Source: Tricharina praecox
Taxonomy: Eukaryota
Direction: 5' to 3'
DNA: 64,000 nucleotides
Assembly: GCF_024521635.1 (NCBI RefSeq)
Contig: NW_026250413.1
Span: 434,001 to 498,000 of the forward strand
In this document: in pieces, positions 5,317 through 14,586 of the stretch
How positions within the stretch are numbered: the stretch's first letter is position 1
Layout: every line of letters starts with the position of its first letter
Program-made: the position numbers and the translations under genes
Notes under the pieces: model-generated
Told to the model about the DNA's origin: nothing
What the model saw: the letters and a program-made list of their open reading frames with translations, nothing else
Database searches by the model: none

Positions 5317-8274
5317 ATGATGCCTTTCAAAAAGGGCCCTTCGAGTGCCAATAATGCCGCCCTGCCATATCCCCTCACCACGGAGGAACAAGCGAGACTT
5401 ATGCTACAGGAATACGCAGACAACAACGCCAATAGCTACAGGACGGAACCATATTCGCCACCGGCAGCACTCGCTTCGCCAGACTTCGACATGCGGAACC
5501 TCAGCGACGCACTGCCAACGCCTCAGCAATCGAAAGGCAAAGGACTGGAGATACCGGGATCCCTCAGGGCTGGCGGTGCGCCTCAGAGCCCACTGAAAAG
5601 CAAGGAGAAGGAGATTCCCGATTCGCTCAGAGTCGGCGGGGGAGGGAGTGGACGAGTATCGCCGGCGGGAGACAGATCGGATGGAGAGGTCAAGAGGTCG
5701 AGCACCGAGCTACGGAGAAACTACCAGAGGGGTGATGTACCGGACATCCTGCGTGCCGGTGCGAGCCGAAAATCCGCCGAGCTGCAACGACCCGTGTCGC
5801 CCGGGCTTCCGTCGTCGTTGATGGCCCCAAGTGCGCCCAAATCGACGGCACCAAGTGCACCCAAATCGATGCTGGCACCAAGTGCGCCCAAGTCGATGTC
5901 GGTTCCACTAGTCCCAGCGGCACCACCGCTGCTGCCATCACCTGCATCGCCGGCACCCGCACCGCAAACGCCGGCGCCGCAAACACCCCAGCCGTTGCAG
6001 ACTACTCCCAGTTCGGATCACTGTAAGCTGCGCCCTGTATGACGATCAAACTGTCGGGTGACTAACATGCCGCGTGTACATATAGCTTCACCCGCATTGA
6101 TGACGGCCAGTTTATCTGCTACCGACCGCCCTTTCCATGAGTATTCGCCCTTCTACAGCCCACCCAATATCGTAGAACGTTCCGACCCTTCGCAACAGCT
6201 CCCGCCTGTGCGTCCACCCATCGCGCCCTCGAACTCAGACGACGAGAGGCAACGGAACTATTCGATTGCATCCACCGCATCCACCTTCTCTGTTTTGGAG
6301 CCTGGCGCGGATCTGTCTTCGTTCGACGCTTCGTTCAGTCGCGCATTGCCGGGGTGCCGCGGGGAGCCAGTGGTGGGGATGGCAGGCTGGCAGGAAGCGG
6401 CGCATGAGGAGGAGAGTGCGGCAAAGACTTGGGAGGAGGATCTCGAGCGACGGGCTAAGGTTGGCACGGAGCTGCAACGTAGGGCAGAAGAGGCGCAGAT
6501 GAGGATGCATGAAGAGAAACTGCAACAGCAATTCTGGGAGCAGGAACAGCTCGACTGGACCCAACAGGCCGAGATGACTGCACCTGCTAAGCCGCCAAAG
6601 GAGCTCATAACGGGGCCTGGAGTGGCCGTTCCGGCTGCGCTGGCGCCGAACAATCCATGGAATGATCGAGACGGGATGGTGACGCCGACGCCAACTCACC
6701 CTCCTTCACGTCAACCGTCGCCAGCTGTGCCTGTGCCCGCTGTAGTATCATCCACGCCGCTGCTTCCTAGGAGGACGGTAGATCCAACCACGGAAATTTA
6801 CACAATCAAGCAAGTAAACCTAGTCTCGCCGCTTTCGGGCTCGCTGCACCGGTTTCCAATCCTGCTTCAGAATGCAAATGGACCATGCCCGCTCATGGCG
6901 CTCGTAAATGCAATCACTATATCCACCCCTCCTTCGGAGAGGTCGGCTCTGTCCGAGGTTCTGCGGCAACGGGAACAAGTGTCATTATCGCTACTCCTCC
7001 AAGGTGTGTTCGAGGAGCTGATGACACGCACCCAAGACGGACGACCCATTCCGGATGTTGGGGACATGTTTGCGTTCCTGATCACCCTGCACACGGGGAT
7101 GAATGTAAATCCGCGCTTCAACGTGCCAGCCGGTTCTCTTGGGGCGTTTGAGCCCACCACAGAGCTAGACCTCTACGCAGCTTTCTCGATACCACTCGTC
7201 CACGGCTGGCTCCCGACTCCGGGCTCTCCTGCCGCCCAAGCACTCGAGAAGTCGGCGAAGACATATGACGAGACGCAAACGTTGCTCTTCGCGGAAGACG
7301 AATTGATCACCAAATTGACGACTTACAGCAATGCGGTAGCCTCCTCAGCGGAAAACCAAATTCTCCGTGACGCACCAGTAGTGCGCGAATTCATCGAGAG
7401 CACGGCAACGCAGCTCACGCCATACGGTCTGGACACGCTGCGGCGCTTCCTCCCTGAACTGAGGCCGGCGATCCTGTTCCGCAACGACCACTTCTCGACG
7501 ATCGTGCGGCTGCACGACGGTGACCTCGTGGCGCTGGTTACGGACATGGGCTTTGCGGGGCACGAAGAGGTGGTTTGGGAGCGGATCGCGGACGTGAACG
7601 GCCGGGGGAACGTATTCCTCTCGGGCGACTTCCGCGCCGTCGGCGGCAACGGACAACCCACGGGCTCTCCGCCTCCGCCGCAGCCACCGAGACCCCCGCC
7701 GCAGCAGGTACAGAGCATGCTCAACCCCGACGCGGCGCCGCCGCCCCCGCCGCCCAGAGCCCCCTCCACACAGCACGCACCCCCGCCCGACCACCACGAC
7801 GAAGACTATGACCTCGCACTGGCAATGCAGCTACAAGAGGAGGAGGACGCGCACGGGCAACAACAATACCAGCAACACCAGCAGTACCCACCACCGCAAC
7901 ACCCACCACCGCAACACCCCCACCCCCAAAACGCCCACCAACGCAGCCAATCCAGCAGCCACCTCCAACAGCCACCCACGCTTCCCCCGCGGCAAGCGGG
8001 CGGCACCACGCCCCCGCCACCCTACGACTTCGGCCCCGCCCGCAACCGCGCACAGAGCGCTGGCAACCCTCCAGGACCCGCAACCAACTCTGGCGGCGGC
8101 GACGGGAGAAGCGCTTGGATAGAGAGCCAGCAGCGGCTTACGGCGAGACGTGGCAGCGGCGTTCACAGGATCGATCCTATTGCGCCGACCGCGGCCGGGG
8201 GCCCGGGACATGGCAATGGACATGGCAATGGCAATGGCGATAGGCCTCCGAAGGAGCCGTGTGTTATTATGTGA
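5317..8274 (+). CDS. MINDY-family (DUF544) Lys48 deubiquitinase with low-complexity N-terminus, MIU-like motif and C-terminal CaaX
   Basis: ORFs 5317-6042 and 6058-8274 are joined in frame by intron 6023-6085 (GTAAGC...ACTAAC...TAG). Catalytic motifs QNANGPCPLMALVN, LVHGW, LFRNDHFST and LVTDMG; DYDLALAMQLQEEE (MIU-like); ends CVIM. Confidence 0.9.
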
Positions 8275-12880: not shown

Positions 12881-14586
12881 TCAGTTGTAGCCGTTACCAC
12901 CCAAGCCCACCAACTTGGCGCCGTTGATGACCTTCAGCTCCTGCTCGATCTGTCCGTTACCAAACACGATCGGCCTGTTCCAGTACCACCACGGCGCCCA
13001 GTCTCCAGCGGTCTGGTCGTTCTTCGCCTTCTTGAAGGCCTCGAACTCGACCCTCATGATTTCCAGATGCTGGAACGCTTCGTCGCGGCTCATCGGCACT
13101 CGCATGATGACGCCGTTCTCGAACACGGGGAAATCGATGGTAGTGCCTTGCGGTGCCGTGTCCCAGAAGCCCTTCGTCGTCGCCTCATTCCACTCCGCGT
13201 CAGCCTGGGCGTCGATCATGTGCTGCGGCACGGTGCGCTCCTTCTCGAGCCAGCGCCAGTACGCGGCCGCCCACTCGGTGGTGCGGGTGACGAACTGGGC
13301 GTCGAACTCGCTCGGCCCGCGGCCGCGCATGGACGCATCGCGAATGAGGACGAGGTACGTCTTCCACGCACGGTGGGCATCGACGAGTCGGCAGTCAACC
13401 CAGCCGTTGTGGAACTTGTCGTCGAGCGTGCGGGTCTGGCCGAGATCGCCGAGGATGATCTCGTGCAGGCCGTTGCGCAGGAAGAGGTTGTCGATCTTGA
13501 TGTCGTCGTGGCAGAAGCCCGTGTTGTTGAGCAGTGGGTCCTGCGTCGTGTGCATGCGTGCCAGACCCTCGAAGACGGTGCGGTATCGCGGCCGGTACAG
13601 GAAGTCGATGGCCGTGGTGGACATGTTGAGGTATGAGAGGGCCTCGGTCGGGGAGTCGAGGGCACCGCCGTAGAGCGGCAACACCATCTTCCAGAGGAGC
13701 GGACGGGACTTGTCGGTGCTGTTGCTGGGAACGTAGAATGCATCTATGGCGTGAGTTGTGAGATCCTCGCCGGTGAGGGAACTGGAGTCGTTGTTGTAGC
13801 GGCGCAGGGTCGCATTGATGTCGCAGGGCCATTTAGTGTCGGTGATGTTGTGTTCATAGTACAGACGATCCGACACTCTCCGTGGTGCCAGCTGCATGCA
13901 AGTTGTGGAGAAGAAGGTCTTGATGATTACCGTCTTCTTTGTGCGTTGGCACGTGTAGACGTCGGCTTGACCTTCGTATCCACGGCCCAGCCGCCTATGG
14001 TAGACATAATCGGGCTCAAAATCCTTTGAAGTCTCGTTGATGATGCGGACAATCTTATGGTCCGGGGATAATAACTATGACAGGAAACGAAAGAAAAGAA
14101 ACCGTCAGTCATTGTTGGACCACAGATGGTACAAAAGTTCTGTGTTCCCACCGCCGCCGCCACCACCGCCACCACCACAACGTCCAGTGGTACGCATGTT
14201 ACCACGCCAGCAACTCGGCCAGAATATGGTCAAATAGCCGCTATGGATAGAAAAAACAATCGTCTCCGGATCAGACTACCGATTTGATGGGGGGTATGGG
14301 GGGGTGCAGACGGGGTTGAACTGTCGGGGGAAGGAAGCTGATATGTACTTACGTTGTCGAGCGTCAACCTGGAAGTCTCCATGGACGGAGCCTGCTTGAA
14401 GACCTGAATCTTCCCATATCCGTACCCCCTCAACAAGGAGGCGGAGGGAGATGAGGACGAGGATACATGGATCAAGAGAAGAAAGACTATGAAAGCGCCG
14501 GCGAAGATGAAGGAACGACGCCGTTTCGCCGACATGAGGCCGCTCATGCACGAGCGCTGCTTTTTGTTGAAATCGTGGACACCCAT
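12881..14586 (-). CDS. Protein kinase-like protein with N-terminal signal anchor (~475 aa, candidate secretory-pathway kinase)
   Basis: Exon 1 14586-14353; intron 14352-14075 (GTAAGT...CTGAC...TCATAG, phase 0); exon 2 14074-12881. Motifs LGRGYEGQADVY (G-loop), VIIK, CHDDIKIDN and GDLG. Hydrophobic segment FIFAGAFIVFLLLIHV follows KRRR. Confidence 0.8.

Follow-up and report, generated by a model that had tools for sequence, protein, structure and literature searches.

A predicted type II membrane protein kinase of Tricharina praecox and its uncharacterised family in filamentous ascomycetes

Animals offer a well-understood case of phosphorylation within the secretory route and in the extracellular space, with kinases such as Fam20C, VLK and POMK. 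The locus described here raises the question of whether a filamentous fungus also places a protein kinase of its own in the secretory lumen. It lies in a stretch of 64,000 nucleotides from the cup fungus Tricharina praecox (Pezizales; contig NW_026250413.1, positions 434,001 to 498,000), hereafter called the window, and consists of a gene on the minus strand that runs from position 14586 to 12881. An earlier note on this DNA had proposed it as a secretory-pathway kinase acting in the lumen or at the surface. The reading preferred here is that the gene encodes a single-pass type II membrane kinase of 475 amino acids, catalytically intact, whose kinase domain would lie within the endoplasmic reticulum (ER) or Golgi lumen or on the cell surface; this reading is given slightly more than even weight. 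The chance that the kinase domain resides in the secretory lumen or at the cell surface, considered by itself, is put at that level or a shade above it. Lumenal location, glycosylation and activity of the kinase are all predictions from its sequence, and the earlier interpretation emerges as reasonable, unproven and partly supported, having overstated both the sequons and the kinship to animal secretory kinases.

Read from the sequence, the gene has two exons separated by one intron, as follows.

14353..14586, minus strand: exon 1, 234 nucleotides encoding 78 amino acids and ending in phase 0, with the start codon, a basic tail, a hydrophobic anchor and a Ser-rich stem
14075..14352, minus strand: intron of 278 nucleotides in phase 0, with a GTAAGT donor, a CTGAC branch point, a pyrimidine tract and a CATAG acceptor
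12881..14074, minus strand: exon 2, 397 codons and a TGA stop, holding the whole kinase domain and a C-terminal extension

The ATG at 14586 is the earliest in-frame ATG downstream of a stop, and exon 1 closes on a codon boundary with GTAAGT immediately after it. The intron, whose branch point lies 34 nucleotides before its 3' end, contains an in-frame stop and has a length that is not divisible by three. The longest ATG-initiated open reading frame (ORF), the 338-residue P0001, begins downstream of the glycine-rich loop (G-loop) and of the VIIK lysine, which confirms the remark in the earlier note that a plain ORF track misses the N-lobe. Every sequence element listed in that note was likewise found in its place on the minus strand.

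The splice that had been proposed to join the anchor exon to the kinase exon is borne out by homologs. An annotated protein of Pyronema omphalodes (P0009) aligns without gaps over the junction (RLTLDN/LLSPDH against RLTIDD/FLNPDH, with the slash at the exon boundary) and has in common with the window protein an MG start and an RRRSF motif followed by a hydrophobic stretch, while an equivalent anchor is present in the annotated protein P0010 of Geopyxis carbonaria. In the metagenome locus L002, with 75% amino acid identity, the ATG is retained, exon 1 shows one indel of 3 nucleotides, the intron opens with GTAAGT at the same codon, and the CTGAC branch point and a CAG acceptor are present as well. 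At the nucleotide level the window and this locus are 79% identical over exon 1 and 85% over the beginning of exon 2; across the intron the figure falls to 66%, with 21 gap columns. A second metagenome locus, L003 (56% amino acid identity), also retains the ATG and has an anchor exon of 81 codons that ends in PRLTLDD directly before GTGAGT, with the positions of donor and acceptor unchanged. Measured against L002, the ratio of nonsynonymous to synonymous substitution rates (dN/dS) comes to 0.22 in exon 1 and 0.24 in exon 2, and the former value points to purifying selection on exon 1. Judged by the homolog alignment and the conserved intron position, the locus holds a genuine gene of two exons. 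In addition, the architecture of anchor and kinase does not depend on any splice model, since the distant members L005 and L007 hold anchor, stem and kinase in a single uninterrupted ORF. When exon 2 was searched by tblastn against the 64-kb window, only the gene itself was matched.

The direction in which the kinase domain faces is predicted from two adjoining elements of exon 1.

14515..14526, minus strand: basic cluster KRRR, residues 21-24 of the full-length protein, immediately N-terminal to the anchor
14464..14514, minus strand: hydrophobic signal anchor SFIFAGAFIVFLLLIHV, residues 25-41 of the full-length protein, 17 residues long

The anchor reaches a Kyte-Doolittle mean of 2.22 over 19 residues, the maximum of the protein; the 24-residue tail ahead of it carries seven Lys or Arg and one Asp, and a Ser-rich stretch follows it. 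The same layout was looked for among the 88 relatives in alignment A2, from which 17 fragments or sequences without a Met start were removed, leaving 71. A relative was taken as full-length-looking if it had a Met start and at least 60 amino acids before the G-loop, and an anchor was defined as a 17-residue segment with a mean hydropathy of at least 1.6. By this definition, the N-terminal membrane segment of the earlier note is a trait kept by most homologs, with a hydrophobic segment ahead of the kinase domain in 60/71. In these 60 relatives, the 15-residue N-terminal flank has more Lys and Arg than the C-terminal flank in 48, an equal number in 4 and fewer in 8, and the difference in net charge (N-flank minus C-flank) is positive in 53, zero in 3 and negative in 4. 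According to the positive-inside rule, the more basic flank of a membrane segment faces the cytosol; from the basic N-flank one therefore predicts that the N-terminus lies in the cytosol and the kinase domain outside it, that is, a type II orientation. Seven of the 60 have at most 12 residues before the segment and resemble plain signal peptides. In published comparisons of organelles, short anchors, such as the 16-17 residues found here, suit the ER and Golgi more than the plasma membrane, and the predicted anchor would fit the former better.

Other features of this region were observed along the way. In many members, the window protein included (LLLIHV), the hydrophobic segment ends in His (...FHF, ...LHV). 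A stem motif, K-Y/F-S/T-P-T-x-F, is conserved in the wider family and is missing from the Pezizales subgroup. One protein of 1368 amino acids (P0037) carries the family kinase domain at approximately 781-1042, after a major facilitator superfamily (MFS) transporter domain and with its own RRRR and hydrophobic anchor at approximately 700-726. This protein is either two genes merged by the gene caller or a true fusion and, if the latter, its kinase would lie on the side opposite to the cytosolic C-terminus of the transporter.

That exon 2 encodes a kinase is supported by its predicted structure. An AlphaFold2 model, built with an alignment of 89 sequences, has a mean predicted local distance difference test (pLDDT) of 91.2 and a predicted template-modelling score (pTM) of 0.91. 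Structural comparison with VIA-align gives Z scores of 18.1 to RIPK3 (4m66; 235 aligned residues, root-mean-square deviation 3.3), 18.0 to MST2 (5dh3; 242 aligned), 17.2 to PIM1 (4a7c) and 16.5-16.9 to BubR1/Bub1, Wee1 and Myt1; Z is at least 8 for 269 of 48,161 chains, and the alignments extend to approximately model residue 345. Foldseek assigns a probability of 1.00 to eukaryotic protein kinases (ePKs), with template-modelling (TM) scores of 0.33-0.41. Sequence profiles lead to the same fold. A profile of the family, searched against PDB sequences, finds CDKL3, PAK1, MAPKs, GSK3 and Myt1 at E values of about 1e-10, through the G-loop/beta3 and the alphaE-to-DFG regions, while a search with the window protein alone reaches the WNK kinases at E 0.36. 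Among 20 relatives, 7 pass the gathering score of the Pfam Pkinase model and 19 match it at E <= 0.01, all 19 matches ending by profile position ~150-160 of 263. Judging from the model, exon 2 is a complete ePK-type kinase domain with a bilobal fold, and the kinase assignment of the earlier note, intact catalytic core included, stands. In the Pezizales subgroup, the C-terminal extension is also conserved, with a beta hairpin (313-328), a long helix (330-352) and the motifs PWWWW and ELKVI.

The catalytic elements of this domain are listed below, with conservation counted over 89 aligned relatives. Here and in the rest of the text residues are numbered from the start of exon 2 unless stated otherwise; residues 30-35 correspond to 108-113 of the full-length protein, K52 to K130 and N150 to N228.

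13970..13987, minus strand: G-loop GRGYEG, residues 30-35 (G32 in 85/89, E34 in 82/89, G35 in 84/89)
13919..13921, minus strand: ATP-binding lysine of VIIK, K52 (K in 88/89, the other row being a gap)
13820..13822, minus strand: probable alphaC acidic residue D85 in WPCDI (E or D in 88/89), in model helix 84-90
13487..13510, minus strand: catalytic loop HDDIKIDN, residues 189-196 (H189 89/89, D191 89/89, K193 87/89, N196 89/89)
13439..13447, minus strand: DLG, the equivalent of DFG, residues 210-212 (D210 89/89, G212 86/89)

HMMER aligns HDDIKIDN to the HRDLKxxN of WNK and CDKL3, the Asp of helix alphaF (D232) is kept in 85/89, and D85 is, according to the model, the probable equivalent of the alphaC Glu. 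Three substitutions characterise the family: HDD in place of HRD (D in 76/89, N in 10/89), DLG in place of DFG (L in 70/89), and a family-wide Glu at the tip of the G-loop (82/89). Since every catalytic residue is near-invariant, a pseudokinase is argued against, and the pattern reads as that of an active enzyme.

What follows DLG is less usual. No APE motif is found in the window protein, the helix that starts at Cys228 follows DLG after just 15 residues, and in the AlphaFold2 model no helix is formed in the interval from 212 to 228. The activation segment appears to be replaced by a conserved loop rich in Arg, His and Trp (R215 86/89, H219 82/89, H222 80/89, W225 81/89, D227 76/89, C228 83/89). 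The earlier note had described the C-lobe as atypical for want of an APE motif: the motif is indeed absent and the region past DLG is atypical, and the remainder of the C-lobe is complete. A non-RD kinase (HDD) with an APE-less segment of ~15 residues, ending at Cys228, would have no need of activation-loop phosphorylation and would bind its substrate unusually; the expectation for this kinase is therefore constitutive activity and an unusual substrate site. In the proposed mechanism, the basic N-flank would set the type II orientation, leaving the tail in the cytosol and the kinase domain in the ER/Golgi lumen or at the surface, where it would phosphorylate, at the expense of lumenal ATP, a substrate that is secreted or belongs to the membrane or the cell wall. 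A Lys in the catalytic loop is typical of Ser/Thr protein kinases, and the Lys193 signature favours Ser/Thr on proteins as the acceptor, with a glycan hydroxyl, as for POMK and Fam20B, as the main alternative.

The window protein is, from its sequence relationships, a member of an uncharacterised family of anchored kinases of the Pezizomycotina. A phmmer search against 1.84 billion representatives returned 117 proteins at E <= 1e-3, 52 at E <= 1e-10 and 3 at E <= 1e-30, and a profile search with the A2 alignment in a set of 5.8 billion proteins added two new ones. All named members come from filamentous ascomycetes (Pezizomycotina): the Pezizomycetes Pyronema, Trichophaea, Geopyxis and Choiromyces; the Sordariomycetes Lomentospora, Colletotrichum, Verticillium, Clonostachys, Sodiomyces, Trichothecium and Fusarium decemcellulare; and the Dothideomycetes Bipolaris, Boeremia, Periconia, Coniosporium, Eremomyces, Macrophomina and Botryosphaeria. 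Saprobes, mycorrhizal fungi and plant pathogens are represented alike. The members are annotated as hypothetical or generically as "protein kinase domain-containing", and in a language-model atlas the window protein adjoins two Ascomycota clusters with the latter label. The Pezizales subgroup comprises 10 sequences, the window protein among them, at 37-75% identity.

Compared with canonical ePKs, the family shares the bilobal fold over ~235-258 aligned residues (Z 16.5-18.1) and the GxGxxG loop, the beta3 Lys, HxDxKxxN, the metal-binding Asp of DFG and the alphaF Asp. It differs from them in its low identity (14-17%), in HDD, DLG, the Glu at the G-loop tip and the APE-less activation segment of ~15 residues, in an additional helix before alphaC, in a C-terminal extension of ~110 residues, and in an N-terminal anchor that predicts an extracytosolic domain. 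It is best classed as a branch of the ePK superfamily that is divergent and lineage-specific and bears a predicted type II anchor.

Among secretory kinases, VLK (PKDCC) and POMK (SGK196) have an N-terminal signal or anchor followed by a lumenal kinase domain. The fungal family resembles them in this predicted layout, divergent motifs included, and in the presumed mode of working, phosphorylation inside the secretory pathway; it differs in keeping the canonical catalytic residues and in occurring in filamentous ascomycetes. Neither POMK nor VLK/PKDCC is found among the best 60 PDB profile matches or the best 50 structural matches. Because the family occurs in filamentous ascomycetes, an ePK was probably recruited to the lumen independently here, apart from VLK and POMK. 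The type II or secreted Golgi-lumen kinases of the Fam20/Four-jointed and FAM69 (DIPK) families offer an analogy of proposed function, whereas their kinase folds are atypical and have Pfam models of their own. The models for Fam20, FAM69 and FunK1, which we take to be PF06702 (Fam20/Four-jointed), PF12260 (FAM69/DIPK) and PF17667 (Pkinase_fungal), match neither the window protein at E <= 10 nor the 20 relatives at E <= 0.01, which speaks against membership in these three families. The apicomplexan secreted kinases ROPK, WNG and FIKK are also ePK-derived kinases with altered motifs that are routed into the secretory pathway. These, however, belong to other lineages, are not among the listed sequence and structure matches, and act as parasite effectors or in organelle biogenesis, in contrast to a fungal family found in saprobes, mycorrhizal fungi and pathogens.

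Further hints on location come from sequons and cysteines, of which the following are the most conserved.

13619..13627, minus strand: sequon N150-M-S, the sole sequon kept in 10/10 close relatives (alignment A1), in the loop between helices 140-146 and 153-176
13511..13513, minus strand: Cys188 (C in 88/89), directly preceding the catalytic His
13391..13393, minus strand: Cys228 (C in 83/89), at the beginning of the helix that carries Asp232

The seven sequons named in the earlier note (NETS, NITD, NATL, NDSS, NSTD, NMST and NNT) are all present in the window protein. In 2000 shuffles of exon 2, the number of sequons was 2.4 +/- 1.4 and reached at least seven in 0.55% of cases. The ten members of the Pezizales subgroup have on average 4.2 sequons in the core domain against 1.25 expected, and in this subgroup N150 is kept in 10/10, N76 in 8/10, N183 in 6/10, and N13 and N373 in 5/10 each. 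In the AlphaFold2 model, N150, N76 and N183 fall outside helices and strands and N13 lies at a short strand. As for the cysteines, the window protein has six, five of them in exon 2 and two of them conserved; Cys188 and Cys228 could form a disulfide that staples the catalytic loop to the next helix.

Several results weigh against the proposed lumenal kinase. With the window protein, the Pfam Pkinase model (PF00069) matches the catalytic loop only, at 16.1 bits (E 0.0075), and the gathering score of 31.7 is not reached. The best matches in both sequence and structure are ordinary cytosolic Ser/Thr kinases, no animal secretory kinase is among the listed matches, and a specific relationship to FAM20, POMK or PKDCC was not found. 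Position 219 in the replacement loop is His in 82/89; the window protein and the relative nearest to it have Asp there. Eleven of the 71 full-length-looking relatives have no anchor, among them the annotated protein P0005 of Trichophaea hybrida; the first 31 residues of P0005 have no counterpart in locus L003 (77% identical), whose anchor exon (L003 3568-3810) lies upstream, and its first exon has probably been mis-modelled in the public record. The region before the anchor has, over the 60 anchored members, a median of 29 amino acids, 5 Arg and 1 acidic residue, and lacks acidic residues altogether in 25/60. The wider family (n = 78) has no excess of sequons, 1.53 being observed against 1.30 expected; enrichment across the family is consequently rejected, and the sequon argument, broader in the earlier note, becomes local to the Pezizales subgroup. 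A Cys directly before the catalytic His is found in cytosolic kinases too, and for this reason Cys188 by itself says little. A second pair of cysteines was dropped as evidence of a disulfide: both are present in 34 members, one or the other in 3 and 5, and neither in 47 (Fisher p 8e-16), and yet on a FastTree tree they change 5 and 7 times and an independent-pairs test gives a median p of 0.5, so that their co-occurrence is not significant once relatedness is considered.

Some of these points can be read in favour of other locations. The Arg-rich, acid-poor region before the anchor, including the seven basic residues and one acidic residue in the tail of the window protein, would fit the bipartite presequence of a mitochondrial kinase, in which the N-terminus would act as a matrix-targeting signal, the hydrophobic segment as a stop-transfer anchor, and the kinase domain would be exposed in the intermembrane space, a compartment that permits disulfides. 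For the seven members with at most 12 residues before the segment, that region is too short for a presequence, and the sequons conserved in position within the Pezizales, enriched 3.4-fold, would be of no use in mitochondria, so that a mitochondrial location is considered quite unlikely. The segment could instead tether an ordinary signalling kinase, facing the cytosol, to the ER, the mitochondrial outer membrane or another organelle. The cytosolic nature of all the closest structures and sequences agrees with this, as do the lack of a sequon excess in the wider family and an odd number of core cysteines (three) in 46/89 members. It is opposed by the positive-inside rule in 48/60 relatives, only 8/60 having the more basic flank on the C-terminal side, and by P0037, whose kinase retains its own RRRR and anchor after the transporter domain; an orientation towards the cytosol is accordingly rated as unlikely.

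Other explanations concern what the protein is or does, rather than where it lies. A kinase in the same location might act on a glycan or small molecule, or serve as a non-catalytic scaffold, given that the peptide-binding activation segment and the P+1/APE region are missing and a conserved Arg/His/Trp-rich loop stands in their place. The Pkinase matches that stop at ~160/263 in 19 relatives, the lack of a model helix at 212-228, and the weak side matches to the Kdo, APH and ABC1 models in 7/20 relatives point in the same direction, and excerpts of two papers on secretory kinases provide POMK and Fam20B as precedents for sugar kinases (PMC5142810, PMC5865150). In contrast, Lys193, a hallmark of Ser/Thr protein kinases, is kept in 87/89, and the near-invariant catalytic residues speak against a pseudokinase; a different substrate or a scaffold role is hence held to be a minor possibility, although one with appreciable weight. 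Finally, a prokaryote-style ORF call yields only the 338-residue P0001, and exon 1 might be an unrelated upstream ORF, the true product beginning within exon 2 as the remnant of a truncated cytosolic kinase. Such a product would be devoid of the G-loop and of Lys52, kept in 84-88/89 relatives, and would leave unexplained the low dN/dS of exon 1 (0.22), the fact that L002 and L003 retain this exon together with an intron at the identical codon, and the anchor in the annotated Pyronema and Geopyxis proteins. That there is no such two-exon gene is hardly credible.

The type II membrane kinase is therefore kept as the preferred reading for the window protein, and can be extended tentatively, with somewhat less than even weight, to the Pezizomycotina as a whole. 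Under this proposal, the family would consist of type II secretory kinases: constitutively active non-RD ePKs, recruited to the lumen independently of Fam20, VLK and POMK, acting on secreted, cell-wall or glycan substrates through a site rebuilt from a truncated and possibly disulfide-stapled activation segment. In the literature searched on fungal secretory or lumenal kinases and on fungal kinomes, no description of this family or of a fungal counterpart was found, although supplementary kinome tables may list members. SltB of Aspergillus is presumably a different protein from this family. In an excerpt of a 2025 review, Fam20C is stated to be absent from yeast and plants (PMC12292773), and the part of another paper that deals with the evolution of Fam20 describes it for animals only (PMC5865150).

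If the type II reading is true, the family supplies a concrete candidate for the phosphorylation of secreted and wall proteins in fungi, from truffles and soil saprobes to major genera of plant pathogens (Colletotrichum, Verticillium, Bipolaris), and would be relevant for protein production in fungal hosts. Should the kinase domain face the cytosol or the intermembrane space, the family would still represent a branch of the kinome that is lineage-specific and undescribed, and whose APE-less substrate site is unusual.

Some minor observations concern the intron and the surroundings of the gene. The intron block 14196-14292 (minus strand) can be aligned well in L002 and partly in L003, the remaining intron having diverged. 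RNAalifold on the three sequences predicts a weak small hairpin with one compensatory pair, and no Rfam family matches the block at E <= 1; the block might act in splicing or regulation, or represent a small RNA not yet described. The intron of the window also contains a microsatellite-like (GGT/GGC)n run at 14140-14185 (minus strand), which is not conserved in L002 or L003. The sole recognisable neighbouring gene is an open frame of 743 codons at 6043-8274 (plus strand) with a MINDY deubiquitinase domain (Pfam E 2e-64), an unrelated neighbour for which no functional link to the kinase was found. Opposite exon 2, two long antisense frames of 251 and 260 codons lie at 12881-13673 (plus strand), and are read as by-products of a G+C-rich coding strand and not as genes.

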